A stretch of DNA of 64,000 nt, taken from positions 97,932-161,931 of the forward strand of contig JACQNZ010000008.1 in the NCBI GenBank assembly GCA_016202815.1, given 5' to 3'. Position numbers and translations under genes: made by a program. The notes under the pieces were generated by a model that was not told the origin of the DNA, did no database searches, and was given only the letters and a program-made list of their open reading frames with translations. Below are positions 2,327-62,565 of this stretch, one piece after another. The number at the start of each line of letters is the position of its first letter. Positions within the stretch are counted from its first letter, which is position 1. This stretch comes from Candidatus Aenigmatarchaeota archaeon. Lineage in GTDB: Archaea; Aenigmatarchaeota; Aenigmatarchaeia; JACPZZ01.

Positions 2327-2710
2327 TCAGAAGTAAACCAGTGCCCATAAAAGGGCGACAGCCACGGCAAGCTTGAACAAAGCCACCTTCTGGAACCATT
2401 TGTCAGACTTCTTCAAAACCAGCTTGATCGCATCCCTGTGTATGTCATTGAACATCAGGAAGCTTCCTGCAAGCAGCCCGGCCCCGAAAACAGAGACCAA
2501 AAAGCTTTGCAATCCCGCCAGCTTCACTACAAGAAGCGCGGTTATCAGGCCTGACGCAAACATCACAAGGCTGATTGCATACGACCAATCCTTGTTGATT
2601 TTTGAAAATTCCTTAAGCCAGGCTTTTGCTTTCTTCGGCGAGAGCACGGTTAAGGACCTGGTAAGTATCACCAGCGCGAGTAAAAGAGCCGCAACAGCCT
2701 TTAAGACCAT
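2327..2710 (-). CDS. hypothetical membrane protein
   Basis: 127-aa ORF with 3-4 hydrophobic helices, tightly packed against zupT. Confidence 0.45.
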   Translation of the reverse strand: MVLKAVAALLLALVILTRSLTVLSPKKAKAWLKEFSKINKDWSYAISLVMFASGLITALLVVKLAGLQSFLVSVFGAGLLAGSFLMFNDIHRDAIKLVLKKSDKWFQKVALFKLAVAVALLWALVYF

Positions 2711-17871: not shown

Positions 17872-18777
17872 ATGAGTTTCGTGGACGAATTACACGAAAT
17901 AATTAATGGAAGTTTATTGGGAGATGCTTGTGTTCAAGTAAAAAAAGATCGATACCATTATTTCAAATATACTGCAAAAGATAAGAATTTTCTGGAAAAC
18001 CTGAAGAAAATTTTGGAATGTTATGGAATAAGATGCTGGATAACTGTGGACAATCCGGGTGTGCATTCTTTAGGTTTTTACATAAACAAATGTCCGTACA
18101 AAGAGCTTATGGGTTTGCATGAGAACTGGTACAAGAAAGAAAACGGAAAAAATAGGAAAATATTACCCAAAGACTTAGAAATAACCCCGAAAACTTTATT
18201 CTATTGGTACATCGGCGACGGTTGTTTAGTACGAAGAAAAAACGACGACAACCGCGTACCGACGTTATGCCTGGCAACAAATTGCTTTTCCAAAAAAGAT
18301 GTTGAAACTCTGCTGGAAAAACTGAATAAATTAAATCTTAATTTCTATGCAACTGAATCCGCGAGCGGATTCAATAAAGGCGAAAAAGCTGGTTATGCTT
18401 TATACTCGAATGTAGCAGACGGCACGCCGTTAAGGTTTTTCCAAACAATCGGACTGAAATGCCCGGAAGAAATAGCTAATTGTACAACCGGAAGTAAAGG
18501 AATAGATCATAAAAAAAGATTCTTCCGCGACAAATGGCCTACGGAAGACGATTGGATTAAAATCCTGTCCAACGTGAAATTCGGAAAACTGTTGAGGGAA
18601 AGAAGGTTCCAAATGGGTTTGACCCAAAAACAGCTTGGCGGTCTGGTTTCAATGCGGCGTGAAAACATCCGTGATGTGGAACTGGAAAAAAGGAATTTCT
18701 GCACCAAGAATTTCAGGAAAGTGTTAAAGGCGACAAACATAACCACGACTGATCTGTTAGAACGCTTAGGAGAATAA
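17872..18777 (+). CDS. free-standing LAGLIDADG-type homing-endonuclease-like protein fused to a C-terminal XRE-type HTH
   Basis: Two LAGLIDADG-like motifs ('LLGDACVQV', 'YIGDGCLVR') and C-terminal 'GLTQKQLGGLVSMRRENIRDVE'. AT-rich gene. Confidence 0.5.
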   Translation: MSFVDELHEIINGSLLGDACVQVKKDRYHYFKYTAKDKNFLENLKKILECYGIRCWITVDNPGVHSLGFYINKCPYKELMGLHENWYKKENGKNRKILPKDLEITPKTLFYWYIGDGCLVRRKNDDNRVPTLCLATNCFSKKDVETLLEKLNKLNLNFYATESASGFNKGEKAGYALYSNVADGTPLRFFQTIGLKCPEEIANCTTGSKGIDHKKRFFRDKWPTEDDWIKILSNVKFGKLLRERRFQMGLTQKQLGGLVSMRRENIRDVELEKRNFCTKNFRKVLKATNITTTDLLERLGE

Positions 18778-20858: not shown

Positions 20859-23366
20859 ATGGCAATCCGCATTGCAATAGCGGGCGTAGGCAACTGCGCA
20901 TCGTCGCTGGTGCAGGGCTTGTTTTATTACAAGAACGTGAAAACGAACGGCGAGACCATACCCGGTTTGATGCACAACGTGCTCGGCGGCTACAAAATAT
21001 CCGACATCGAGATTGTCGCCGCTTTCGATATAGATGAGAGGAAAGTCGGCAAGGACGTGTCCGAGGCGGTTTTCGCGCAGCCGAACTGCACGAAAATGTT
21101 TTCCGACATCCCGCATCTCGGGATAAAGGTGGAGAAAGGGCCTGTTCTGGACGGCGTCGCGGAGCACATGGAAGGCAGCGGAAGAAACGAGTTCGCCGTG
21201 GCGGAAGGCAGGGAGGCCGATGTTGCCGCAATCCTGAAAAAATCCAAGGCAGACGTGCTTATCAATTACATGCCCGTCGGTTCTGAGAAGGCGGCGAAGT
21301 TCTACGCGCAATGCGCTTTGGATGCGGGCTGCGCATTTGTCAACTGCATGCCGGTTTTCATATCGTCCGACAGGGAATGGGCCAACAAATTCCGTGAAAA
21401 AAATCTTCCAATAATCGGCGACGACGTGAAAAGCCAGCTCGGTGCAACGATCGTCAACCGCACGCTGGCGAAATTATTCGAGGATCGCGGAGTGAAAATC
21501 GACCGCATGTACCAGTTGAACGTTGGCGGCAACAGCGTAACAGGCGATCAGGAAATTATGCTTTCCATAGACGGAAAAATAAGGAATGTTAAGATTGGGG
21601 AATTCATAGACTCTTTTGTTGATGTTTATGGGGAAAAACGTGATGATGGAAAGGATATAGTGGTTTTGGACGGGTCGAAACAGCGTATCGAATGCTTTAC
21701 CGTCGATGATAATTACAATGTCACATTGTCAAACGTGGACGCCTTGATAAGGCATAAGATTTCCGAACCGGTCTATGAGATCGTCACAGAAGAAGGGAGG
21801 GGGATAAGGATAACTGGCGATCATAACGTGTTTGTCTTAAATGATAACGGCGATTTGAGCGAAATCCCAGTGAAACTTATAAAGGAGAATGAAACTTACA
21901 TAGCTGTTCCCCGGTCTATGGAGTGTGTTGCGCAGGAAGACCTTAAAAACATAGATCTAACCCCATTTTTGGGCAGTTTTTTTGTGAAAGAAGTCTCGGA
22001 CGGCTACATAAAAATCCACAATCAGGAATTGAAGATCCCGGTACAATTCCCTGTTACGGACGAACTTCTCCAAACCTTGGGGCTTTGGCTGGCAGACGGT
22101 AATTTCGACAGAAACGGAAACTCATCGAATATAGAACTGGCCTGTGGCGACGAGCCGGAATGCATGGGAGTAGTGACCGGTTTGGTGGGCGGCATGGGCA
22201 TAAACTACAATGTTAGAAAAGACGGCATTAGGGTAAGACTTCTGTCTAAAACGTTGTCCAAGATCTTTAGGTTGGCCTTGGGCCTCACTGGCAACTGTTA
22301 TACAAAACGCGTGCCAGAATGGGTATTCAATCTGTCGGACAGGCAAACCGCACTGGTATTGAGAGGTTATCTAAGCGGTGATGGCGGCGTAACTGGAAAG
22401 CAAATCAGGTGGACTTCTGTTTCAGAGAACCTTATCAGGGATCTACAAACGTTGTTGTTGCGCTTGGGGATAAACTCCACTATTTTCAAAGAAACGTACC
22501 GCAAAAATAGGAAGGGTGCGTATGACAGCCCATTGGGCTGCTGCTGGCACGGTTTAATGGGATCCAAGGAAGACGTGGGTCTGTTCATAAACAAAGTGGG
22601 CTTTTTACAAAAATTCAAAAACGAAGCTGCGGTAGAGGCTTACGATAAGATTAAGAAAAGCAACTGGAATAGGGTGCCAAATATTCCTCTATTCAAAAAA
22701 TGGAAAATAAAATCCACAACATGGTATAAAAACCCGGCCATCGTGGCTGGTATAGTCCTTCAACAACTGGGAAAAGTCAAAAACGATTTCGAAAAAGAGA
22801 AGATAAAGCAAATTTGCAGCGGCGACGTGCATTTTGTCAGGGTAAAAAATATTAAAAAAATGGAAGCTGGCGATATATACGTTTATGACCTGAGCACGAA
22901 GCCATTCGAGCGATTTATTTGTTCCAACATCCTCGTTCACAACACGGATTTCCGCAACATGCTAGATCGAAACAGGTTAAAAAGCAAAAAAATATCCAAG
23001 ACCGAAGCGGTTCAGTCGAACATACCTAAGCGCCTGGAGGACGACAACATCCACATCGGGCCCAGCGATTACGTGCCGTGGTTAAACGACAACAAGATCG
23101 CGTTCATCAGGATCGAAGGCCACAATTTCGGGAACATACCCGTTGAGCTTGAGTTGCGCTTGTCCGTCGAAGACTCGCCGAACTCGGCGGGCGTTGTTAT
23201 TGACGCAATAAGATGCTGTAAAATTGCTCTTGACCGGAAAGTAGCCGGGCCTTTGACAGCGGCATCGGCGTATTTTTGCAAGCATCCGGCCGAACAATTC
23301 TCAGACGAAGCTGCGCGGGCGATGCTGGAAGAATTCATAGAAACTAAGCAATTGGTCGCAGCGTGA
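20859..23366 (+). CDS. myo-inositol-1-phosphate synthase (archaeal type) interrupted by a 470-aa intein
   Basis: N-terminal NAD-binding 'IRIAIAGVGNCASSLVQG'. Extein junction 'LNVGGN' and 'TDFRNMLDRNRLKSKKISKTEAV'. Extein total about 365 aa. Confidence 0.8.
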   Translation: MAIRIAIAGVGNCASSLVQGLFYYKNVKTNGETIPGLMHNVLGGYKISDIEIVAAFDIDERKVGKDVSEAVFAQPNCTKMFSDIPHLGIKVEKGPVLDGVAEHMEGSGRNEFAVAEGREADVAAILKKSKADVLINYMPVGSEKAAKFYAQCALDAGCAFVNCMPVFISSDREWANKFREKNLPIIGDDVKSQLGATIVNRTLAKLFEDRGVKIDRMYQLNVGGNSVTGDQEIMLSIDGKIRNVKIGEFIDSFVDVYGEKRDDGKDIVVLDGSKQRIECFTVDDNYNVTLSNVDALIRHKISEPVYEIVTEEGRGIRITGDHNVFVLNDNGDLSEIPVKLIKENETYIAVPRSMECVAQEDLKNIDLTPFLGSFFVKEVSDGYIKIHNQELKIPVQFPVTDELLQTLGLWLADGNFDRNGNSSNIELACGDEPECMGVVTGLVGGMGINYNVRKDGIRVRLLSKTLSKIFRLALGLTGNCYTKRVPEWVFNLSDRQTALVLRGYLSGDGGVTGKQIRWTSVSENLIRDLQTLLLRLGINSTIFKETYRKNRKGAYDSPLGCCWHGLMGSKEDVGLFINKVGFLQKFKNEAAVEAYDKIKKSNWNRVPNIPLFKKWKIKSTTWYKNPAIVAGIVLQQLGKVKNDFEKEKIKQICSGDVHFVRVKNIKKMEAGDIYVYDLSTKPFERFICSNILVHNTDFRNMLDRNRLKSKKISKTEAVQSNIPKRLEDDNIHIGPSDYVPWLNDNKIAFIRIEGHNFGNIPVELELRLSVEDSPNSAGVVIDAIRCCKIALDRKVAGPLTAASAYFCKHPAEQFSDEAARAMLEEFIETKQLVAA
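21534..22943 (+). mobile_element. intein with LAGLIDADG homing-endonuclease domain inside the MIPS gene
   Basis: Block A 'SVTGDQEIMLSIDG' (Ser1), block B 'TGDHNVFV', LAGLIDADG motifs 'LGLWLADGNFD' and 'LRGYLSGDGGV', C-terminal 'ILVHN' followed by +1 Thr. Confidence 0.75.
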
Positions 23367-27961: not shown

Positions 27962-30900
27962 ATGAGGCACACAGGGCTGCGGCCGGAGATTATCATACTT
28001 GTTTTGTTACTTGTTCCTGGCTTTGCGAGCGCCTCGTACACTGCAAAGATAAGCCTGACACTGGAAAAGCCCGTATATTCCCCCAGCGAACAGGTCGTGC
28101 TTTTCGGCTCCGTCTACTTGTCCAACTTAACGGCCAACGACACGTCGTACCAGCCCGTTGCCAACGCAAGCGTAAACGTGACAATTTACGGCAATTCAAC
28201 AGGCATGGTGAAGAGGAATTACACAATCAACGCCAGCGCGCAGGGCGTTTTCAAATCCAACAGCTCGGACGCGCTGACAGAACAGCCTGTGACAGCGCCG
28301 GCGGAAACAGGATCTTATTACATTGAAGCGTCTTACAGCGACCCGGACAGCGTCAAGTGGCACAACAAGCTGCCTTTTGTGGTTCTTTCGCAGACCATAG
28401 ACGACATAACAATGCGGCCTTCAAAGTCAAAGTTTTACGCAGCAGAGCCTGTCACAGTGTTTCTCGAGGCTGTCAAGCGGAGCGGCGGCAGCAGGCTGCC
28501 CGTATCCAACGTTTCCCTGAACGGGACTTTGCGGTCAGAAAATTTGGCATTAATAAATCAGTTTAACTGCACTACCGGCAGCACAGGCGTGTGCTCGGTG
28601 GCGTTCAACGCCCCGTCTACCACAGGAAAATACGTTGTGGAGGCCAACAACTTTCTTGGCACAGGTTCTTTCTACGTGATACCGTTTAACATACAGGTCT
28701 ACATGAAAGACGGCCTCGGACAAAATTACAAGGAGGTGTTCCGCACAGGCGAGGACGCCTCTGTCGAAGTTCGCGTTGATTTGAACGGCTCTGTGCCCAG
28801 CTCCAGCTACACATTCAACGGGACCATAACAAACTCCGGCGGAAGCACGATCACAAACATAAGTTCGACATTGTTAGAGTCGAATAATTCATACACGAAC
28901 AAGTTCACCTTCGCCATAAGCAACCAGTTCACGACCGGTAATTACCTTGCCTCGGTCACAGTTTACGACAACGCCAGCCGCACGCGATCGGCAACGGCAT
29001 TTTTCCAGGTCAGGGACTGGACAATGACATTTAACAAAGCCTCGTCCAGCTCCGGCTTCGAATACGAATACGTGGCATTCCCGGGCAGGCGCCTGAATTT
29101 TGAGATATATCCGAAAGACAGGCAGAACGGCAGCATAATCACAGGCTTGAACGCTTCGCAGTTTAATATCACGCTCGCGAACATGCTCGGCTCGGCGCTG
29201 CAGGCGGGCAACGCCACATGGAACGCCACCTGCGGGGGCGGGTGCTACACGTTTAACCTGACCGCCCCGGCCACGGTCGGCGATTACATCGTGGCTGTTT
29301 CCTTAAACCACAGCAGCGACACGCAAAAAATAGAAAGAAAAATAATCGTGACCAGCTTGACATTGCCCGCAAGTTCAACAACGGAAACAGGCGCCCAGAA
29401 AGATTTGTTCGGCACAACAGAGCCTGTTTATCTGACACTGGCCGCAACCAATACGACGTCTTCCGTGAACCTGACAGACGCGTCTGTAATCAACATAAAA
29501 TCCGAGAACGGCACGGAGCTCAATTACACAAACACCACATGGTTCGGCATCAATGTCACGGACAGCGTGCTCCAGTGGGCGTGGAATTCCAGCGAGCAGA
29601 GGCTGAAAATTGACCCGCCAAAAGCAGGCGGTGCATACACTGTGAAGATCGGAGCCAATTCCAATTCTGTGATAGCGACCGGGCGATTTATAATAAATCC
29701 GTACGACGTCTGCGTTGCGGCTAAAACGGGCGCAGGCACAGTGGACTCTTCGACAAGTTTTTATGCCTGGCAGTACAAGACGACAGACACCGTTTATTTC
29801 GAATTAAAAGCGGCCCAGGCAAACAACCCAAGCGGCAGGGCAAACTCCACATCCGCTAAAAACGGCACCAACTTCGGCATGGGCTTCGCCTGTTCCGTGG
29901 ACACGACGCGCCAGCAGGTCGTAACAAACGCAACCATAACCGTTGACAAAGTATTCAGCGCGATATCCGGCGTTGCGAACAGCCTGAACTCCACTGAAAC
30001 CGTGTGCAAGGCCGACGACAGCCAGGGAACTTACACATGCACGCTGAAGCCCCTGAGCAAATGGGAGGGCGGCCGCAACGTGGTCGAGTTTAGCATAGTC
30101 GGCTCGGACAGGCAGACGTCTGACAAAGTCGTCGCAATATTCGAGTCGCGCAGTTTTTTCATCTACGGTTATCCGACAACATGGGCCAACAAGCCGCAGA
30201 GCAACATAACGTTCACGCTTAACCTGTACAATCCCGGCACCAGCTGGTGGAATAACTACGGTTCAGGCGGGCTGAGCGGGTCCGCAACCATACAAAAAGT
30301 CCAGTACATGGGCAAAAACGGGGAGTGGGTGTGGCCGCCAGTGGAATATCCGTACAACACGACAGGCGTGAACGCGTCTAATATAACATCCGGTACAGGC
30401 ACGTTCTCCCTGCAGCACACGCGGGCATCCAAAGGCTCGTGGGATGTCGGCTCCTATTCTGTCGTGGTCAAAGCTACGGACGCAGCATCAGGCGAATCGG
30501 ATTACGGTGAGGTGTGGTTCGAGATAAAAAGATGGGACGCGTACTCCACCCCTGTGGAAAAATCCGGAAGCTCGTTCAATTACAAGTATTCCGTAAACCC
30601 GCGGGAAAACGTTTCATTGTACGTCAGGCTGACAACGGCCGGAAATTACAACGATAACGGCGGTTCGAGCCTCGGCGGGAATGTGAGCGTGACGGTGAAA
30701 AGGCTTGAGCAATATCCGAAAGAGGTCAACTCGAGCTCTTACGGCGTTGTCGGCATAAACGTTAACCAGTCCAGCCCGTGGTATTACAACGCAAACGCGG
30801 ACACGTACGCCAATTACGTCATAACTTTGTACCCGGTCGGCGGCAGCTGGGAGAGCGGTTATTACAACGCTGTGCTGGACATCAACGGCACGGACACAGG

Positions 30901-33121
30901 CTGGGGATGGTTCAACGTGATATCTTTCTCTGTGCAAACCCAGCCGACAGACGAAAACGGCACCAACTACGTTTACAACATCAAAGGCAACAAGCCTGCA
31001 TATTTCAACGTGACAGCCTCGAAGAGCTGGAAAAATTCTTACACGCTGTCAGACTTTGTGAACGCGACATTATCGGACATGGTGATAAGGACGTGGCGCC
31101 AGAGCGGAAACAACTGGCAGCCCATTGAGTACAATTATCCGGAAGACATCAACATCACCGTTGTCAACAAAACCAACCTTGACATCAACGGCTCCGCGTT
31201 GTTGAATGTGACTTTGCTTTCCGGCAACTGGCCGTCAGGATGGTATTCCGGCGACGTGAAATTAAAAAGCGTTTCCGGTGAAAATGCGGGCGATTTCGCT
31301 ACCGGTTACATCTATTTCAACGTGCAGCCGTTCCGCGCCCAGGCGTCTGTAACGAGCTATGAAATAGATTACGACGCCAATGTCACGGCAAACCTGTACG
31401 CCTACGAGCCGGGCTGGAGCAGCAACACCGTTTTAGCAGGCAACTACTCGATTAAAAAAATAACAGAATCTCAATGGACCGGCACAGGCTACAATTACGT
31501 GACGTATACCAATTACACGCCGCACAATTTCACAGGCCAGACAGTACTCAACATATCGCCTTCCGGCGCAACAGCAAACAACAAGTGGAGCCTGTCAAAT
31601 TCCGGTTACCGTTACCTTACAATAACCGTGGAAGACAGCAACACGGGCGACACGCAGGACGCATGGCTGTCGTTCAGGGCAATGCCATTCCTGATATCCG
31701 TAGGAACTCCTTACAGCCAGAACTCCATAAGTTCGGCGCAAAACGTAACAATACCTGTCACGATCACAAGCTCCAGGAACAGTTCGGCAGCCTCGGGCAA
31801 CATATCGCGGATATCGGAATGGGTCTGGCCGTCGCAGACCTCGTACGGTTTCACAGTGGGGAACTGCTCGTCAACGACAAGCGGGTCGTGCAAGATCACA
31901 GGCACGCAAAACGTTACGCTGCACGTTCCCGCAGGCGGCTGGTCAGAGGGCTGGCATTACATGGATATGGAGTTCACGCCTCCGGACGACAAGTCGTCGA
32001 GAATATCGTCGGGCAGCACGTGGTTCCGCGTTTCACAGTCGTATACAGGGTCGTTCTCAAACTACGACGAAAACAACGTGTGGAAATATTACATAGGTTT
32101 CAGCGAAAACGTCAGTTTACGGGTGCAGGCCACAGACGCGAATTACGTGGGCCGCGAGGTCAACATAACAAAAGTCGAGTACGCCGAATCCGGATCAAGC
32201 TGCTGGAGCGATTATTGCAGGACATACGTTGATGCGAGCTGGCAGGTAGTGAACGCCAACCCGAACAAGCCCAATGAAACAAGCGCGGCAGGCTCTGTTG
32301 TAAGGATCATTGCCCCGTCAGGCGGCTGGCAGCGCGGCGACCACATTGTGCGCGTCAACGTGGTCGGCCCGTTAGGCTCAGCCACGCTGAAATCCGGCTA
32401 TTTCTGGGTCAAGGACACTTCGGGTCCCAACGTCACGATCGCAAGCCCGTTATTCAATGTAACGATAAACGTTTCGTCCTTCTTATTCAACGTAACAACA
32501 ACCGAAGATTCCACGTGTTCGTTTAACATTGTCAATTACGACAGTTACAATTCATGGTACTGCGGCGGCTCAAACGCATCAACGGTATACAACCCGCTTT
32601 ATTCGCACACGTGCAACACAACAACGTTCAAGGGATCTTCGTATTACAGCGTTTATGCGAGCAGGTGGTCCGACTCCAACTTCCAGACCGACGGCATAAG
32701 GCATTCGTTTAACTTTTCAACAGCCGGCATGCCGGCGCAGCATTACGGCGCATACCTGTGGTGCAGCGACGTGGACTGGAATAATATCTGGGCCGCAACG
32801 GTATTCGTGGTGAACACAAGCATAAGCGGGGTAAACGTGACGCTTACAAGCCCGGCGAACAATGGCCTGGCCACGTCATCGCCGGTAAATTTCGGTTACA
32901 GCTTTACAGGCCCGACATCCAGTTGCGACCTTTACACCAATTCGTCGGGCTGGATGGTAAACGCCAACCAGCAATCGCTGCTGGCAGGGGCGCGCAACAT
33001 CACGTTGCCGCTGACCAACGGCACATATATATGGAACATAAAATGCGCGCAAACGACCAATTCAAGCAATTTCGCGTGGGGCGCGTCCAACCGTACGTTG
33101 TACGTAAATATAACAAGCTGA
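27962..33121 (+). CDS. giant secreted surface (S-layer-like) glycoprotein, 1719 aa
   Basis: Signal peptide 'MRHTGLRPEIIILVLLLVPGFASASY', dozens of N-x-S/T sequons, no TM. TATA-like 'aatatatta' about 25 bp upstream. Confidence 0.6.
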   Translation: MRHTGLRPEIIILVLLLVPGFASASYTAKISLTLEKPVYSPSEQVVLFGSVYLSNLTANDTSYQPVANASVNVTIYGNSTGMVKRNYTINASAQGVFKSNSSDALTEQPVTAPAETGSYYIEASYSDPDSVKWHNKLPFVVLSQTIDDITMRPSKSKFYAAEPVTVFLEAVKRSGGSRLPVSNVSLNGTLRSENLALINQFNCTTGSTGVCSVAFNAPSTTGKYVVEANNFLGTGSFYVIPFNIQVYMKDGLGQNYKEVFRTGEDASVEVRVDLNGSVPSSSYTFNGTITNSGGSTITNISSTLLESNNSYTNKFTFAISNQFTTGNYLASVTVYDNASRTRSATAFFQVRDWTMTFNKASSSSGFEYEYVAFPGRRLNFEIYPKDRQNGSIITGLNASQFNITLANMLGSALQAGNATWNATCGGGCYTFNLTAPATVGDYIVAVSLNHSSDTQKIERKIIVTSLTLPASSTTETGAQKDLFGTTEPVYLTLAATNTTSSVNLTDASVINIKSENGTELNYTNTTWFGINVTDSVLQWAWNSSEQRLKIDPPKAGGAYTVKIGANSNSVIATGRFIINPYDVCVAAKTGAGTVDSSTSFYAWQYKTTDTVYFELKAAQANNPSGRANSTSAKNGTNFGMGFACSVDTTRQQVVTNATITVDKVFSAISGVANSLNSTETVCKADDSQGTYTCTLKPLSKWEGGRNVVEFSIVGSDRQTSDKVVAIFESRSFFIYGYPTTWANKPQSNITFTLNLYNPGTSWWNNYGSGGLSGSATIQKVQYMGKNGEWVWPPVEYPYNTTGVNASNITSGTGTFSLQHTRASKGSWDVGSYSVVVKATDAASGESDYGEVWFEIKRWDAYSTPVEKSGSSFNYKYSVNPRENVSLYVRLTTAGNYNDNGGSSLGGNVSVTVKRLEQYPKEVNSSSYGVVGINVNQSSPWYYNANADTYANYVITLYPVGGSWESGYYNAVLDINGTDTGWGWFNVISFSVQTQPTDENGTNYVYNIKGNKPAYFNVTASKSWKNSYTLSDFVNATLSDMVIRTWRQSGNNWQPIEYNYPEDINITVVNKTNLDINGSALLNVTLLSGNWPSGWYSGDVKLKSVSGENAGDFATGYIYFNVQPFRAQASVTSYEIDYDANVTANLYAYEPGWSSNTVLAGNYSIKKITESQWTGTGYNYVTYTNYTPHNFTGQTVLNISPSGATANNKWSLSNSGYRYLTITVEDSNTGDTQDAWLSFRAMPFLISVGTPYSQNSISSAQNVTIPVTITSSRNSSAASGNISRISEWVWPSQTSYGFTVGNCSSTTSGSCKITGTQNVTLHVPAGGWSEGWHYMDMEFTPPDDKSSRISSGSTWFRVSQSYTGSFSNYDENNVWKYYIGFSENVSLRVQATDANYVGREVNITKVEYAESGSSCWSDYCRTYVDASWQVVNANPNKPNETSAAGSVVRIIAPSGGWQRGDHIVRVNVVGPLGSATLKSGYFWVKDTSGPNVTIASPLFNVTINVSSFLFNVTTTEDSTCSFNIVNYDSYNSWYCGGSNASTVYNPLYSHTCNTTTFKGSSYYSVYASRWSDSNFQTDGIRHSFNFSTAGMPAQHYGAYLWCSDVDWNNIWAATVFVVNTSISGVNVTLTSPANNGLATSSPVNFGYSFTGPTSSCDLYTNSSGWMVNANQQSLLAGARNITLPLTNGTYIWNIKCAQTTNSSNFAWGASNRTLYVNITS

Positions 33122-39279: not shown

Positions 39280-40191
39280 ATGGAAAAATCGGCTTTCACG
39301 CTGATTTCGGCGTTAGCGATATTCTCATTGTTAACCAGTTACACCGGGGCGTTGGAAACATGCCGGTCCGGCAATCTCACGACCTCTGTCCACAAGGATT
39401 ATCAAATGGCGTACCCCAACGAGGACTTCATACAGCTCGATGACAAAGACCTTCTCAAAGACCTTTCCCAGTTAAAGGGCTTGGCATGCCTGCAATACAT
39501 AGACATGACCGGGTGGGGCGTCAAAGGGGACGTCGTGAATTTAAACGCGCTGACTAACCTTGAAGTGCTCAGCCTGTACGAAAACCCGGAAGTTTACGGG
39601 AACATCTGCTCATTAAGCGGCGCAACAAAGTTAAGGAGCTTGAAATTCGCCTTCGATCCGGAAGTGTTCGGAGACATTTCATGCCTCAAGGACCTCAATC
39701 CGGAAACCTTTGCCGCGACCAATACGAAAATTTCCGGAGACCTCTCGGGTTTAAGCGGCATGACGAATTTGAAAGCGCTTTACATTTCCGGTACGGGCAT
39801 CACCGGCGACATCTCCGCTCTCAGCGGCTTAACGAATCTAGAAGAGCTGGGAATATCCGACGAGTATCCGGGAAACTCCCGCATCACAGGCGACTTGGCG
39901 TCGCTAGCTAATCTAACGAAGCTGAGGAAAGCCTCGCTGTATAAGATGAAAGCAACCAATTGCAGGCAGTTCACAGCAGCGCACCCGAATATCCAGGGAG
40001 GCTGCTCCGAGTCGAAGGATCCCGGCAAACCTATCGCAAAAGAACCGCCAGCCGAAACCACAACAACACGCGCAGTGGTTGTAAACAGGGAAATACAGCA
40101 ATCAGAGAACGCATCAGGCTACTACACAGTTGGGATCTTTGCAGCCGTCGTAATCGGCGCGGTTATTATGCGCAAAGGGCTGCGGAAATGA
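39280..40191 (+). CDS. leucine-rich-repeat surface protein with C-terminal TM anchor
   Basis: Repeated 'ISGDLSGLSGMTNLKAL / ITGDISALSGLTNLEEL' LRR units. Signal peptide. 'YYTVGIFAAVVIGAVIM' anchor. Confidence 0.55.
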   Translation: MEKSAFTLISALAIFSLLTSYTGALETCRSGNLTTSVHKDYQMAYPNEDFIQLDDKDLLKDLSQLKGLACLQYIDMTGWGVKGDVVNLNALTNLEVLSLYENPEVYGNICSLSGATKLRSLKFAFDPEVFGDISCLKDLNPETFAATNTKISGDLSGLSGMTNLKALYISGTGITGDISALSGLTNLEELGISDEYPGNSRITGDLASLANLTKLRKASLYKMKATNCRQFTAAHPNIQGGCSESKDPGKPIAKEPPAETTTTRAVVVNREIQQSENASGYYTVGIFAAVVIGAVIMRKGLRK

Positions 40192-40194
40192 TTT

Positions 40195-40225
40195 TTTCAG
40201 TGGGGAGACCGTGATTTGAACACGG
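40195..40225. repeat. 31-bp direct repeat = duplicated 3' end of tRNA-Pro (T-arm + acceptor + 6-nt trailer); att-like left boundary
   Basis: tttcagtggggagaccgtgatttgaacacgg versus tttcagtgggaggaccgtgatttgaacacgg at 42263..42293, 2 mismatches. No matching 5' tRNA half nearby. Confidence 0.5.
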
Positions 40226-40303
40226 ATTGCCGCCGGTTGGCCATACGGGATATTCAGGCCAGCCGTAGATGGTTATATAAACCTAAGTTAATACATATTA
40301 ACT

Positions 40304-40852
40304 ATGGTTTATACATCTAAACTAAGGTTAACATCGTTGCAGAAGGAAATAATGCACTTCTTTTTCGTGAACGCAGGCAAAGCGTTTAACGCGCGGGAGT
40401 TGGCTATGTCGGTTGGGGTCAGCCAGCCGGCAATTGCTAAAGCGATTCCGCTACTGGAAAGCAGGGATTTTATCAGTGTATCGAAGGACAAGAAATCCAG
40501 GAGGCTGTCAATCGAATTGAACAGGGAAAACCCTCTTGTCATTGGTTTGAAAAGGGCCGATAATATAGGGCAACTGTACGAGTCCGGTTTAACAGAATTT
40601 CTAAGGGGAAAATTCCCGGGTTGCGCCGTTATCGTATTTGGCAGCTTCGCCAAGGGCGAGGATACGCATAAATCGGATATCGATATAGCCGTTGTTGGAG
40701 TGAAAGGCAAAACTGTTGATCTTAACGGCTTCGAAAAGACATTCATGAAAGAAATAAGGATAAATTTCTACAAGTCATTTAAGGAGATAAACAGGGAATT
40801 GAAAGGCAATATCCTCGGGGGAATCCTTCTGTCAGGATGGGTCGAATTATGA
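40304..40852 (+). CDS. minimal nucleotidyltransferase (MNT-like) with N-terminal HTH
   Basis: 'VIVFGSFAKGEDTHKSDIDIAVV' GS..D.D nucleotidyltransferase motif. Confidence 0.6.
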   Translation: MVYTSKLRLTSLQKEIMHFFFVNAGKAFNARELAMSVGVSQPAIAKAIPLLESRDFISVSKDKKSRRLSIELNRENPLVIGLKRADNIGQLYESGLTEFLRGKFPGCAVIVFGSFAKGEDTHKSDIDIAVVGVKGKTVDLNGFEKTFMKEIRINFYKSFKEINRELKGNILGGILLSGWVEL

Positions 40853-40935
40853 AACCTCTTAAAACGTTTGAATGGTATTTGGTATACTAATCAACAATTA
40901 GTATGTTTATATATTAGTGCTAACTAACAGTTAGT

Positions 40936-42198
40936 ATGATAGTTAAGGAAACCCTTAGGCAGATAGTAACCCAACAGAAACATGAAAATGACCGTGTTGA
41001 AGAGACCGTGAAAAGGAACGTGTTGGACGAAATACTAAAATGGTTCAACGATAACAGGATAATAATTCTAACCGGACTGAGGAGGAGTGGAAAATCTACC
41101 CTCTTAAAACAGATAATGAGAGAAAAGAAGGGCTGGTGTTATGTCAACTTCGAAGATGAAAGGTTCATAGAATTTAGGTCGCAAGATTTTGAGCTATTGA
41201 ACGAGGTTCTTGTCGAAATCTATGGAAACTCGAACATATACTTCTTCGACGAAATACAGAATATTGACAAGTTCGAAACGTTCGTGAGAAGACTACAGGA
41301 TCAGGGAAAGAAGATCGTCATAACAGGCTCCAACGCATCCCTTTTGAGCAAAGAGCTCGGTACAAGACTCACGGGGAGGTACAAATCCTTCGAAGTATAC
41401 CCATTTTCCTTTTCTGAATACCTAATGTTTAGGAATATCTCTCCGTCTAAAGACTGGCCATATCTGACCGGAAAAAAAGTGATATTGTTAAAAGCATTTG
41501 AGAAATATATGATTGAAGGCGGTTTGCCGGAATATCTGAAAAATAAGGACAAGGAATACGTAAGAACCGTTTATGAGAACATTCTTTACCGCGACATTAT
41601 CGCAAGGTATTCGATAAAGATGCAGAAGGTTATTAAGGAACTGTTTAATATATTCGCAACAAACATATCTTCGCAGTTTACCTACAACTCATTGAAGAAA
41701 ACTCTGGGATTATCTAATTCTATAACAGTCAAAGAGTATGCCTCGTACCTAAGCAACTCTTACCTGTTTTTCGAGCTGCAAAGGTTCGATTTTTCCGTGA
41801 GAAGGCAGTTGAATTTTCCAAAAAAGATATATGTTGTGGATCCGGCATTCAGCCTGCTCGGCGGGTTCAATTTCTCCGCTAACAGGGGTCGTCTGTTGGA
41901 AAATTTGGTCTTTATAGAGTTGAAGAGGCGAAAAATGGAATCGTATTATTATTCGGATAAAAACGAGTGTGACTTTGTATTGAAGAGCGGTTCCAAAATT
42001 AACGCAGCGATTCAGGTATGCTACTCTTTGGATAAGGGCAACCGTGAAAGGGAGATTGGCGGGTTGGTTGGTGCAATGGAGAAATTCAAGCTAAGAAAAG
42101 GCGTCATATTGACGATGGAGCAGGAGGAAGAGATTCCGGTGAAAGGCGGAAAAATAAGGGTTGTGCCTGTTTTCAAGTGGCTATTGGGATTCGATTGA
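40936..42198 (+). CDS. AAA+ ATPase of the DUF4143/COG1373 family
   Basis: Walker A 'GLRRSGKSTLL', Walker B 'IYFFDEIQ'. C-terminal DUF4143-like region. Confidence 0.7.
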   Translation: MIVKETLRQIVTQQKHENDRVEETVKRNVLDEILKWFNDNRIIILTGLRRSGKSTLLKQIMREKKGWCYVNFEDERFIEFRSQDFELLNEVLVEIYGNSNIYFFDEIQNIDKFETFVRRLQDQGKKIVITGSNASLLSKELGTRLTGRYKSFEVYPFSFSEYLMFRNISPSKDWPYLTGKKVILLKAFEKYMIEGGLPEYLKNKDKEYVRTVYENILYRDIIARYSIKMQKVIKELFNIFATNISSQFTYNSLKKTLGLSNSITVKEYASYLSNSYLFFELQRFDFSVRRQLNFPKKIYVVDPAFSLLGGFNFSANRGRLLENLVFIELKRRKMESYYYSDKNECDFVLKSGSKINAAIQVCYSLDKGNREREIGGLVGAMEKFKLRKGVILTMEQEEEIPVKGGKIRVVPVFKWLLGFD

Positions 42199-42268
42199 AA
42201 ATCAAAGAGACTATACCCATTGCTCAAAGGGTGAGTTCCAACACCCGGCTGGCCCAATTTTGTTTCAG

Positions 42269-42393
42269 TGGGAGGACCGTGATTTGAACACGGGTTATAG
42301 CCAGTTTGTTTTGAGTGACTGACACATACTATAAGTATGTGTCTAGCTCAACACCCCAAGGCTATGTCTTAGACCAAGCTAGACCATCCTCCC
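42269..42393 (-). tRNA. tRNA-Pro (anticodon GGG) with a 50-nt intron at the canonical 37/38 position
   Basis: Hand-folded. Acceptor GGGAGGA/TCCTCCC, D-arm GTCT/AGAC, anticodon stem TAGCC/GGCTA, loop TTGGGG^T, T-arm CCGTG-TTCAAAT-CACGG, discriminator A, no encoded CCA. Intron carries a perfect hairpin GACACATACT-TATA-AGTATGTGTC. Confidence 0.7.
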
Positions 42394-42507
42394 GGCAAAC
42401 ATATTGGACACTTTTGACTTAAAAAGTGGTTTATACGGTTCTTATCGGAACACCATAGGGCAGTTATTATATAATCGATAATTGTCATTTAATTTTATAA
42501 TTTTTAC

Positions 42508-43341
42508 TTGGTGAATCGTTTGGACATATTTAACACAACTGCGAATCAAGCAAGAAAACTTTTACTAAGCCTTTTAATGACAGACGGTTCAGTATCGTAC
42601 ATCAAGAAAAGGAAACACTATCTGATCAGAATATACGGATATGATAAAAGTATACATGACCTGTTCACATTACTAGTCAAAAAAGGTTTTGGAATAGAAA
42701 AACCCACATGGTATTTCGCTTCTTATGGTAACACGGTAAATGCAACGTGTTATCAACGATGGGCTAAAACTGAAATAGTTAAAACACTTTTTCAATTGTC
42801 GCCTTCTTTCAGGAAGAAGCCCGATAAGAATGAGAGCGCCGAAGACTTTTTAGCATCTTCAAAACCTACGATAAAGTCGATAATGGGCTGTTCCAGACAA
42901 GTCAGGGAATTGTTTTTCAGAATAGCCATGAGTTGTGATGGTTACATAACACTTCTATACGGCAGGAAGCCCCGCCTAGGTATGGCTTGCGCCCATCCAC
43001 AATTAGTAAATGAATGGCTTGAGTTAGCAAGGTCGATAGGCTTGGAATTCAAAATAGAGAAGGATAGAGCCACTTGGAGCGGTATTCACGGCCTTGAAAC
43101 TGTATCCATGGATACTATAGTTAAATTCCACGAAATGGGAGGATTCTTCCCGGAAGACGTTGAAGTGTGTAGAAGCAAGAGATACAAAGGTTATAAAAAG
43201 AATGATATACTTCTAAAGGGTATAGAAATCCATAACAGCTGTATCAGCTCCCATCGTCCAGCCCGGTCAATCGAAAGAACTGATAGGACGTTGGCTTCTC
43301 AGGCCGAAGACACGGGTTCAAATCCCGTTGGGAGCATTTAA
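42508..43341 (+). pseudogene. degenerate LAGLIDADG-like ORF whose 3' end reads through tRNA-Glu
   Basis: Motifs 'LLLSLLMTDGSV' and 'FFRIAMSCDGYITL'. The last ~30 codons are the tRNA-Glu sequence, so the true C-terminus is probably lost. AT-rich. Confidence 0.35.
43247..43336 (+). tRNA. tRNA-Glu (anticodon CTC) with a ~15-nt insertion in the D-loop (possible non-canonical intron)
   Basis: Acceptor GCTCCCA/TGGGAGC, D-stem GTCC/GGAC enclosing a 26-nt loop, anticodon stem TTGGC/GCCGA, loop TTCTCAG, T-arm ACGGG-TTCAAAT-CCCGT, discriminator A. Confidence 0.65.
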
Positions 43342-43389
43342 TTTTTTCTAAAAAGCTCACCAGCGCAACGCATCGACTGGATTTAGCCT

Positions 43390-43531
43390 TGCAGCCGGAC
43401 GGGCCGGTTATGCTCACAAATTCTCCTTTGCGGATTTTTATATTCACGCCTTTCGGCACGGGCACGTCAAGCTTTCCAAGGCAGTACGTCTTGAATACGT
43501 TTTGAAGTTCAAGTATGGTTTTTTGCATTCC
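43390..43531 (-). pseudogene. 5' fragment of an ABC transporter ATPase gene (about the first 47 codons) truncated next to tRNA-Glu
   Basis: 'MQKTILELQNVFKTYCLGKLDVPVPKGVNIKIRKGEFVSITGPSGC' is a canonical ABC ATPase N-terminus. Similarity stops at the Walker A, after which the reading frame runs into the antisense of the tRNA. Confidence 0.45.
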
Positions 43532-60495: not shown

Positions 60496-62565
60496 TTATA
60501 CTTTTTGTAGATGTTTGTATTTCGGCTCCATCAGCTGTCCTTCGCGCTTGAGGCGTTCAATAACTTCCATGGCGTCTGTTTCATTTATACCTTCATTTCC
60601 AGCCGCGGCCAGGACATCTTCAACGGGTATGATCTTGCCTACCTCCTTCGTTAAGGCGTCTACGATGTCTAAGATCATCAGTATCTTGTTACGTTGGCTG
60701 GACGAAGTGCCGCTTTCTATTTTGTCTATGTCGATAAGGCCCGTGTCCTTGTCCAGGCCAAGCTGCTGCAGTGATGTTTGTAAAAGTTTGATTGCGCGGT
60801 GCGCATCATCCTCTGTGACAACAGGAGACAGCCGTATCTTCGCCGAAGCTTCGGTCAGCCTTATCAGCGCTTCGTATTGCCTCGGCGTTATCGATATCGG
60901 CCCGCGCTGCACGTATTTGGACCGCGTGTCGATGTAGAATTTCTTGATTATCTCGCCCACGTCCAGGGTCATCTTTGGGAAGCAGTTCTTTCTTGCATAC
61001 GCTATGTATTTGCGCAAAAACATCGGGTCTAATATCGGTTCTGCCGGGGCGTAATTGTCTTCCACCCTGCTCCTCATTATATGTTCTGCCATCTTGGCGT
61101 CCTTCTCCTTGTCCGGAACGTCGAACAGCGCGAATTTCAGGTCGAAACGAGATAAAAGCGTTTCCGGAACCGTTACCTGGTCCGCAATGCCTTTCATGAA
61201 ATCAAACCTTCCGAACTTCGGGTTGGCCGCGGCCAGTATCGCGGTTTGTGCGGGCAGCGTCGCAATGATCGATGCTTTCGCCACAGATACAGATTGTTGC
61301 TCCATCGCTTCGTGGAGCGCAACCTGGTCGTTCTCGTGCATCTTTTCAAACTCGTCTATGCTGCACAACCCTTTGTTTGAGAGGACGATCGCGCCCGCTT
61401 CCAAAACCCAGCCGCCTGAAAATTGTTCGTCCTTCATCACGCTTGCCGTTAGGCCAACCGCGCTCGCCCCCTTGCCCGAAACATATTTTCCGCGGTTCGC
61501 GATCCTTGAAACAAGCTTCAGCAGCTGGCTTTTGCCTGTGCTCGGCTCTCCGATAAGGAGTATGTGTATGTCGCCGCGCACCCTTGTGCTGTCTTTCATT
61601 GTGTGCGGGACGCCGCTGAATAGCTGGTACGCGATCGCTTCCTTGATTTCGCGCAGGCCGTACGTCGACGTTGCAACGGAATCGACGATCTTTTCATAGA
61701 TGTTCGGGTCCTTCGAAAGCTCGATTATTTTTTGTTCGTCTTCGGGCGTTATTTTCAAATCCGACGCTTCGATTTCCGTTGTTTCAACATGATTCGCTGC
61801 CAGCAGTATGTCTAACTGTACAGACCGTTTTCCTTTTTGTGTGACTTTCGTAACTTCTTTCAGCACGCCGGTTATTCTCAGCCTGTTTCCGGCGTCCGTT
61901 TTCGGCCTCATCGCAGGCGACGTCAAATCATCGCGCAAATAGACGTTTAACTGCGAGGGCTTCTCGCCCTCTGTCATTTCAAACGGTTCTTCGATCTGTA
62001 TCCAGCGCGTGTCCACAAGTTTCTTGTCAAACAGCTCGAAGCGTCCCTTGTACCCGCAGTCGCAGCTGACAGGCTTCTTCATCGTCCTTTCGTTCTGCTC
62101 GAGGAAAATCCTTGTGCTGCATTGCGGGCACGTCCAGATAGTAGTCGCAATCTCGGGGAGAATTTCGGAAGACCGTCGCACCGTGCCTTCAACTGAAACG
62201 AACTGCCCGATGTGTTGCGACCGCAGATGGCGTATTGATATGCAAGCGAACTCCGGTAAATTGCGGAAGCGGAACTTGATTTCGACCGTGTCCGGGAGAT
62301 CGATTTCTTTCACGGCATTTTCAAAAATTTTCAGCGTGTCTTCCGGCTGGTACAATAATTTTTCAGACAACGGCGTGTCAAACTCGTCAAGGACTTTGAA
62401 GTCCATTTCCAGAAAAGGCTTGCCGTCGCGCACAGCCTCTAGCAGGCCCTGGTAGTATTTCTCCCTGAGAAAGTTGACGAATTTCTTGACAATTTCTTCC
62501 TTTTCCATCAGATCACCCTGATTGCGTATCACCCCGGTTATTTTCGAATCAGGGTGATTTGCCAA
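60496..62565 (-). CDS. mcm: minichromosome maintenance (MCM) replicative helicase
   Basis: Zn finger 'CPQCSTR...CDCGYKG', Walker A 'GEPSTGKSQLL', Walker B 'LCSIDEFEKM', arginine finger 'SRFDL'. 689 aa, no intein. Confidence 0.85.
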   Translation of the reverse strand: MANHPDSKITGVIRNQGDLMEKEEIVKKFVNFLREKYYQGLLEAVRDGKPFLEMDFKVLDEFDTPLSEKLLYQPEDTLKIFENAVKEIDLPDTVEIKFRFRNLPEFACISIRHLRSQHIGQFVSVEGTVRRSSEILPEIATTIWTCPQCSTRIFLEQNERTMKKPVSCDCGYKGRFELFDKKLVDTRWIQIEEPFEMTEGEKPSQLNVYLRDDLTSPAMRPKTDAGNRLRITGVLKEVTKVTQKGKRSVQLDILLAANHVETTEIEASDLKITPEDEQKIIELSKDPNIYEKIVDSVATSTYGLREIKEAIAYQLFSGVPHTMKDSTRVRGDIHILLIGEPSTGKSQLLKLVSRIANRGKYVSGKGASAVGLTASVMKDEQFSGGWVLEAGAIVLSNKGLCSIDEFEKMHENDQVALHEAMEQQSVSVAKASIIATLPAQTAILAAANPKFGRFDFMKGIADQVTVPETLLSRFDLKFALFDVPDKEKDAKMAEHIMRSRVEDNYAPAEPILDPMFLRKYIAYARKNCFPKMTLDVGEIIKKFYIDTRSKYVQRGPISITPRQYEALIRLTEASAKIRLSPVVTEDDAHRAIKLLQTSLQQLGLDKDTGLIDIDKIESGTSSSQRNKILMILDIVDALTKEVGKIIPVEDVLAAAGNEGINETDAMEVIERLKREGQLMEPKYKHLQKV

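Follow-up and report, generated by a model that had tools for sequence, protein, structure and literature searches.

The described inteins closest to the element reported here come from other host proteins. This element, 470 residues long, is inserted in frame in a gene for MIPS (myo-inositol-1-phosphate synthase) that lies in a stretch of archaeal DNA of 64,000 nucleotides (contig JACQNZ010000008.1, positions 97,932 to 161,931; the whole stretch is hereafter called the window). By sequence, its best match in the PDB is PI-TkoII (or PI-PkoII), the Pol-2 intein of the Thermococcus kodakarensis DNA polymerase (2CW7; E 1.6e-18), which is also its second structural match (template modelling (TM) score 0.71). 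Both inteins have an N-terminal serine (Ser1), an 'ALIRH' NX motif, a block B TxxH signature about 20 residues further on and a two-motif LAGLIDADG endonuclease inside the Hint splicing domain, but PI-TkoII resides in a family B DNA polymerase, is longer (537 versus 470 residues) and is about 18% identical over the structural alignment. The next solved relatives by sequence are the Mja and Mvu TFIIB mini-inteins (5O9J and 5O9I; Hint-N match with E ~1e-14), which likewise start with Ser1 of the oxyester type but lack an endonuclease domain and reside in a transcription factor, and the cysteine-less PolB1 split intein, the construct of which carries an S1A mutation. PI-TkoII and the TFIIB inteins are characterised members of the Ser1/Ser+1(Thr+1) group (PMC10189870).

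By structure, the top match is TliVMA (7QSS; E 5.5e-26, TM 0.70/0.75), which together with PhoVMA (7QST; PMC8966425) shows the same architecture of Hint domain, LAGLIDADG domain and accessory region. These two inteins differ from ours in their host (the V-type ATPase subunit A), in being only about 18% identical, and in their first residue: as the crystallised constructs are C1A mutants, they are Cys1 (thioester) inteins. The nearest relatives outside MIPS, at 29-35% identity, are metagenomic inteins of archaeal type II/IV secretion ATPases (KlbA/FlaI-like, PF00437), located in another host and at another insertion site; the one N-terminal junction read among them (P0016) starts with SVTGD, like the window intein. 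Finally, the inteins of euryarchaeal UDP-glucose/GDP-mannose dehydrogenases, compared here by host only, also interrupt an NAD-dependent enzyme of sugar metabolism, although both the enzyme and the site are unrelated.

We interpret the window element as a canonical class 1 intein with a two-motif LAGLIDADG homing endonuclease, inserted in the catalytic Block D of an Ino1-type MIPS of an Aenigmatarchaeota-like (DPANN) archaeon, a reading to which we give a probability of about 93%. The intein is complete and probably functional.

Intein boundaries and natural empty sites

The forward-strand interval 20859..23366 is a single uninterrupted open reading frame (ORF) of 835 residues, and the intein corresponds to residues 226-695 of this precursor (21534..22943, that is, 1410 nucleotides or 470 residues, in frame). 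A first-pass annotation, made from the letters of the window, had proposed an in-frame insertion of this size and position in MIPS, flanked by LNVGGN and TDFRNML, and had listed block A, TGDHNVFV, LGLWLADGN, LRGYLSGDGGV and a final HN followed by Thr+1 as its motifs. The reading frame, the coordinates, the flanks and every one of these motifs were recovered where it had placed them. The features of the precursor gene are as follows (the caret marks the junction).

20859..21533, + strand: N-extein of MIPS/Ino1 (residues 1-225); its C-terminal end, ...MYQLN221-V-G-G224-N225, forms the N-terminal half of catalytic Block D
21534..22943, + strand: intein, 470 residues, 53.0 kDa; a LAGLIDADG homing endonuclease domain and a helical region interrupt its Hint splicing domain
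21534..21575, + strand: intein block A, SVTGDQEIMLSIDG; Ser1 (AGC, 21534..21536) is the predicted N-terminal nucleophile
21750..21755, + strand: NX motif Arg73-His74 (in 'ALIRHK'), signature of Ser1 oxyester inteins
21813..21824, + strand: block B (N3), Thr94-Gly-Asp-His97 (TxxH), inside ITGDHNVFV (21810..21836)
22077..22103, + strand: first LAGLIDADG motif, LGLWLADGN, with catalytic Asp188
22359..22391, + strand: second LAGLIDADG motif, LRGYLSGDGGV, with catalytic Asp283
22878..22943, + strand: blocks F and G, YVYDLSTKPFERFICSNILVHN; the intein ends with ...CSNILVHN, His469-Asn470 being at 22938..22943
22944..23366, + strand: C-extein of MIPS (residues 696-835 and stop codon); it starts with Thr+1 (ACG, 22944..22946) and Asp+2, the second half of Block D
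21510..21533 (left half) and 22944..22967 (right half), + strand: inferred homing site, which when joined reads ...GTTGGCGGCAAC^ACGGATTTCCGCAAC..., as in intein-free alleles; its extent is based on the DNA alignment to the empty alleles L006 and L004

Natural empty sites provide the strongest evidence for a seamless junction. In a collection of 5.8 billion proteins, the closest MIPS proteins (80-86% identity, 361-368 residues, several of them named Aenigmatarchaeota) are intein-free, and two of the closest are encoded in loci with the gene order of the window, namely S10 - RpoN - PadR(-) - MIPS - GNAT(-) - DUF7523. The syntenic intein-free loci are L004, L005 and L006, all of which have the exact 1410-nucleotide gap. 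When the window is aligned at the DNA level with L006 and L004, one clean gap of exactly 1410 nucleotides appears at the intein. The empty-allele sequence GGCGGCAAC-ACGGATTTCCGC is identical to the two flanks in the window, and the empty site of L006 includes …TACCAGTTGAACGTGGGCGGCAACACGGATTTCCGCAATATG….

Profile searches of the insert agree with its assignment, at scores far better than chance would give. The Pfam Intein_splicing model (PF14890) matches with E 2e-23 (83 bits, for a cut-off of 35.8), the NCBIfam intein_Nterm model (TIGR01445) scores 39.7 against a cut-off of 24.5, and LAGLIDADG_3 (PF14528; E 9e-20, over the curated cut-off) spans intein residues 272-356, while the precursor itself matches Inos-1-P_synth (PF01658; E 4e-31, also over the curated cut-off). 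An AlphaFold2 model of the intein, built from 19 sequences, is of high confidence (predicted local distance difference test (pLDDT) 90.4, predicted TM score (pTM) 0.91). Its top Foldseek matches are TliVMA, PI-TkoII and PI-PfuI (1DQ3), with E values of 5e-26 to 2e-24, and further matches include PI-SceI and, for the endonuclease core, I-DmoI. The similarity to Hint and LAGLIDADG domains expected by the first-pass annotation is thus found both in the profiles and in the fold.

The residues on which splicing and cleavage would depend are conserved as well. In a same-site alignment of eight full-length MIPS inteins, S1, R73, H74, T94, D96 and H97 are invariant, as are D188, D283, Y451, D452 and the stretch from C463 through N470; Ser1 is also kept in 33 of the 33 complete metagenome copies of the MIPS intein. 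The intein has Ser1, a block B TxxH, a C-terminal His-Asn followed by Thr696 (+1), a Hint profile and fold, and a host sequence that becomes contiguous after its removal, all of which are the attributes of a class 1 intein. Similarly, the two motifs, each with its catalytic Asp, and the fold shared with PI-PfuI, PI-SceI and I-DmoI are those of a LAGLIDADG homing endonuclease. Two other types of Hint element were considered. A class 3 intein (WCT motif) was rejected, as Ser1 is present and both the Trp expected in block B (ITGDHNVF) and the Cys expected in block F (YVYDLSTKPFERF) are missing; a non-splicing Hint domain or bacterial intein-like (BIL) domain was rejected on the residue pattern.

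Host enzyme and predicted splicing chemistry

Once joined, the two exteins (20859..21533 and 22944..23363) form a protein of 365 residues and 40 kDa, which aligns with residues 3-357 of Mycobacterium tuberculosis Ino1 (PDB 1GR0; E 9e-132). The junction is free of gaps, QLNVGGN^TDFRNML in the window standing opposite QLNVGGNMDFLNML in 1GR0; the seamless extein alignment anticipated by the first-pass annotation is thus borne out at the protein level, as it is by the exact gap in the syntenic empty alleles. The NCBIfam model for inositol-3-phosphate synthase (TIGR03450) matches with E 5e-145, but in two stretches, as the intein interrupts the match and thereby keeps it under the cut-off for the whole protein. 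These similarities identify the host as an Ino1 of the M. tuberculosis type (TIGR03450), and not as an enzyme of the Archaeoglobus type.

The intein lies within the active site of this enzyme. Catalytic Block D has the consensus ixsyNhlGNnDg (PMC5614600 Table 3), and its equivalent residues are N229/G232/N233/D235 in M. tuberculosis (Mt), N255/G258/D261 in Archaeoglobus fulgidus (Af) and N350/G353/N354/D356 in yeast (Sc) (PMC5614600 Table 3). Asn255 of the A. fulgidus enzyme (AfMIPS) is among the residues whose importance was shown by mutagenesis, as cited in PMC5614600, and we found no literature on Asp356 of yeast MIPS. In the window, Block D reads N221-V-G-G224-N225, then the intein, then T-D, with N221, G224, N225 and D+2 in agreement with PMC5614600 Table 3. 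The insertion point thus falls between the equivalents of Mt N233 and M234 (Sc N354 and N355, that is, yeast Asn354 and Asn355), with the conserved Asp one residue on, and our own alignment to AfMIPS agrees with this placement. The catalytic S-K-x-x-x-K of Block C (LKSKKISKT) is found 14-19 residues into the C-extein, also in agreement with PMC5614600 Table 3. As the active site of an unspliced precursor would be split by a foreign protein of 53 kDa, MIPS activity presumably depends on splicing.

The nature of the +1 residue differs among MIPS proteins: M. tuberculosis has Met, eukaryotes have Asn and A. fulgidus has Tyr (PMC5614600), and the intein-free close relatives of the window enzyme have Thr, Ser or Cys. 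The predicted nucleophile is therefore one that this MIPS clade has natively, which may account for the confinement of the intein to the clade, and as Thr+1 belongs to the host enzyme itself, splicing would leave no scar.

Splicing would proceed as in other class 1 inteins of the oxyester type. The MIPS gene would be translated as a 93-kDa precursor, in which Ser226 (Ser1) would carry out an N-to-O acyl shift at the Asn225-Ser226 bond, assisted by Thr94/His97 and His74. Thr696 (+1) would then attack the oxyester to give a branched intermediate, and cyclisation of Asn695, helped by His694, would free the 53-kDa intein. A final O-to-N shift would produce a native Asn-Thr bond and restore the N-x-x-G-N-T-D motif in the 40-kDa enzyme of 365 residues.

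The first-pass annotation regarded this Ser1/Thr+1 chemistry as uncommon, and it is indeed a minority type, yet a well-known one, as InBase holds 58 Ser1/Ser+1 or Thr+1 inteins from 16 alleles (Pasch et al. 2023, PMC10189870). Such inteins have a specific NX motif, a His that follows Arg or Lys upstream of block B, which was critical for splicing in the three inteins tested (PMC10189870). The motif of the window intein, R73-H74, is located about 20 residues before TGDH, and 'ALIRH' aligns with PI-TkoII and with the Pol-2 rows of the supplementary InBase Ser1 alignment of PMC10189870. Because this motif is shared with the InBase Ser1 inteins, the predicted chemistry is that of the known minority type, of which the window intein is a typical member. 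The intein has nine cysteines, and C54, C210, C428 and C463 are invariant across the eight aligned MIPS inteins; it is not cysteine-free overall.

Some observations concern the surroundings and homologues of the enzyme. In the window, a convergent GNAT acetyltransferase gene overlaps the 3' end of the MIPS gene by 23 nucleotides (23344..23366). In other Aenigmatarchaeota-like lineages, a CDP-alcohol phosphatidyltransferase gene is found 3' of MIPS, directly in L086 (3653..4276) and L087 and one gene further on in L089, a proximity that fits a role in inositol-phospholipid synthesis. One MIPS homologue from the Joint Genome Institute (JGI) collection (P0030, 495 residues) has an internal segment of about 130 residues repeated in tandem (...VAAHMADY...RLFADRGVA), which is not an intein and may be either an assembly artefact or real.

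Distribution and apparent mobility of MIPS inteins

A search with the intein portion only retrieved 14 protein clusters (38-67% identity), all of which carry the MIPS Pfam domain and, where their termini are readable, start with SV[TS]G... and end with ...VHN^TDF. Their source metagenome-assembled genomes (MAGs) are labelled Aenigmatarchaeota, Altiarchaeales, Hadesarchaea or simply 'archaeon', and some JGI entries are already machine-annotated as 'myo-inositol-1-phosphate synthase/intein/homing endonuclease'. A scan of species-representative genomes yielded an allele with 79% identity in an Aenigmatarchaeota groundwater MAG (L001). In metagenomes, an alignment restricted to the intein retrieved about 46 loci with at least 44% identity, and those with readable flanks are all located in MIPS at GGN^[T/S]DF. 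The 33 complete copies among them are 465-488 residues long; all have S1 and HN, and all but one have T+1 (L016 has S+1). Wherever the motif is readable, neither LAGLIDADG Asp has been lost, and no mini-intein was seen among these loci. When a library is reduced to representatives at 50% identity, a single one (62% identity) stands for the MIPS inteins, the next matches being at 29-35% and in other hosts. Given this drop in identity from MIPS copies (at least 38%) to copies in other hosts (at most 35%), the sequences delineate the MIPS intein as a distinct allele, rare but recurrent.

Three sets of aberrant or divergent copies were encountered. The NCBI MAG protein P0011 (808 residues), the one homologue lacking the first catalytic Asp, has LANG instead of LADG in its first motif and SVDG in its second, and lacks about 36 residues through a deletion, which points to endonuclease decay occurring among MIPS inteins. 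In L002 (MAG JBDRIL010000012, ~2480..2520), a frameshift is located in an A9 homopolymer of the N-terminal Hint region of the MIPS intein; either the assembly is wrong at this point or MIPS is truly inactivated. Finally, P0015 and P0017 (755-758 residues, from Logan assemblies) contain inteins of the SVTGD...HN^T type that are about 27-30% identical to ours, and their host protein has no Pfam match outside the intein.

If the endonuclease is active, it would spread the intein by cutting intein-free alleles at ...GGCGGCAAC^ACGGATTTC..., repair from an intein-bearing copy completing the homing. Patterns of presence and absence are in line with such mobility. The window MIPS is closer to its nearest intein-free homologue (86% identity) than to its nearest intein-bearing one (80.5%), and the same holds for L011 (96.7% for the intein-free neighbour versus 87.2%) and for L001, P0139, L018 and L023, so that alleles differing by the presence of the intein are up to 96.7% identical in protein. 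Furthermore, extein and intein divergences are incongruent in some pairs: P0003 and P0011 share 68% identity in their exteins and 46% in their inteins, while P0005 and P0011 share 56% in their inteins and 50% in their exteins. The closest pair of intein-bearing and intein-free alleles, L011 and L086 (92% nucleotide identity), shows differences clustered within 90 nucleotides of the junction (82% identity there versus 94% elsewhere; 32 of about 90 differences; binomial p ~9e-6). Almost all of the differences in this tract are synonymous, although it encodes the most conserved part of the protein, and no such clustering is present in four control pairs of intein-free alleles. The tract resembles co-conversion resulting from homing, or from recombinational loss of the intein, a resemblance that is suggestive only. 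Purifying selection also acts on the Hint and endonuclease parts of the intein alike: between the window and L001, the proportions of nonsynonymous (pN) and synonymous (pS) differences in the intein are 0.13 and 0.81, with a pN of 0.07 for the C-extein.

Several observations weigh against this picture of a functional and mobile intein, or are neutral to it. Pairwise intein and extein identities are correlated (r = 0.79), so that vertical inheritance and losses, instead of frequent homing, could explain a large part of the history. No tract signal was detected between the window and L006 or L004, nor in the pairs L018/L088 and L023/L089, and viral contigs, when scanned, yielded no related intein. 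The G+C content (GC) of the intein is lower than that of its exteins (0.43 versus 0.54 and 0.51; 0.51 versus 0.71 and 0.63 at third codon positions), but a low intein GC recurs in L001 (0.37 versus 0.50 and 0.46) and may be a property of the family, not a sign of recent import. As the L001 intein is offset in the same way from its own exteins, we rejected the GC offset as decisive proof of a foreign origin. Lastly, actual splicing and DNA cleavage are themselves predictions drawn from the sequence.

It may be that the intein still splices but that its endonuclease is dead, the element being inherited vertically and kept since an imprecise deletion would destroy the active-site motif. The correlated divergences of inteins and exteins, the window allele without a conversion tract and the decay seen in P0011 (LANG for LADG, 36-residue deletion) speak for this explanation. 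However, both catalytic Asp residues are intact in the window and in nearly all of the ~45 homologues, among which no mini-intein derivatives were seen; purifying selection constrains the endonuclease core just as it does the Hint domain; and presence/absence polymorphism extends to the most similar alleles, one such pair having a junction-centred tract. We consider a dead endonuclease a real but clearly less probable explanation, and rate the chance that the endonuclease is still active as about even to likely.

A non-splicing domain insertion, or a pseudogene encoding a dead enzyme, is very unlikely. Splicing is predicted here from the sequence, and the related allele L002 is frameshifted inside its intein, but the latter event affects a homopolymer of the kind typical of assembly errors, the window ORF is intact across 835 codons, and all class 1 splicing residues are present and invariant across the eight aligned homologues. 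In addition, the exteins are strongly constrained (C-extein pN 0.07, see above) and 86% identical to intein-free enzymes. An assembly chimera joining the intein of another gene into MIPS is hardly credible: although the assembly behind the window is probably of the metagenome type and the exact precursor has no other record, the same architecture recurs independently in more than 45 contigs of many different samples and never at another codon boundary, the frame is kept at both junctions, and intein identity tracks extein identity.

Other window features, novelty and significance

The window contains several other features of interest. Its other large ORFs (among them a 1719-aa ORF, MCM and LysRS) gave no intein match when scanned. 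MCM is the commonest archaeal intein host, and the MCM replicative helicase of the window (60496..62565, - strand, 688 residues) is intein-free. The only matches of the 1719-residue ORF (27962..33121, + strand), of MG2 and Wzt_C-like type, are weak and fall around residues 245-358; it may encode a large surface protein. A free-standing ORF of 301 residues (17872..18777, + strand), located in the lowest-GC stretch of the window (~0.38), carries a LAGLIDADG_2 domain (E 1e-17) and a weak C-terminal helix-turn-helix. As a counterpart of 298 residues is found at the syntenic position in the intein-free locus L004, this protein may be domesticated, and not mobile. Finally, an extended low-GC block (~39900..43400; 0.39-0.44 versus 0.485 for the window) contains an ATPase of the AAA_14/DUF4143 type (40936..42198) and ends with a 90-nucleotide tRNA-Ser(AGA) called by ARAGORN (43247..43336), which is absent from Rfam calls at the gathering score. 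The block could be an integrated element beside a doubtful tRNA.

Turning back to the MIPS intein, the first-pass annotation considered a metabolic host to be uncommon and the site to be a candidate new insertion point. The first view stands insofar as such hosts are rare: COG categories L and F make up ~75-83% of intein hosts (PMC4760082). Metabolic hosts are nevertheless documented, as Table 2 of that survey (PMC4760082) places UDP-glucose dehydrogenase within the 15 leading intein hosts of archaea, and one NCBIfam model describes a tetraether lipid synthase that contains an intein. Concerning the site, we found no paper pairing inteins with MIPS in the library searched. Novikova et al. 2016 do not list such an intein in their main text or top-15 tables, the main text being also free of any mention of inositol, and no inositol, MIPS or Ino1 entry appears among the InBase Ser1 inteins that Pasch et al. 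2023 align in their supplement. The window copy is not unique, however, given the 14 clusters and ~45 metagenome contigs, some of them machine-annotated. Thus, the insertion site appears undescribed though already machine-annotated in public data, and the element is of a standard kind.

A far broader reading would hold that MIPS inteins form an actively homing, cysteine-independent Ser1/Thr+1 lineage, now circulating among several uncultivated phyla of archaea, where it would occupy the active site of a lipid-headgroup/osmolyte enzyme. Slow oxyester splicing would then be a possible conditional switch on inositol-phosphate synthesis, responding to temperature, pH or substrate, and the intein a new natural scaffold for the cysteine-less inteins sought in protein engineering. 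We regard this proposal as unlikely.

Although no concept is changed by the MIPS intein, it adds a well-supported insertion site (the 'MIPS-a' allele) to the short list of metabolic-enzyme inteins, and it fits the usual rule that inteins occupy whichever catalytic motif of the host is most conserved. With about 45 copies, all having Ser1 and the NX-motif histidine and nearly all Thr+1, MIPS inteins also illustrate cleanly, in nature, the less common oxyester chemistry, and may be of interest both for searches of cysteine-independent inteins and for the study of intein movement among DPANN and other uncultivated archaea.

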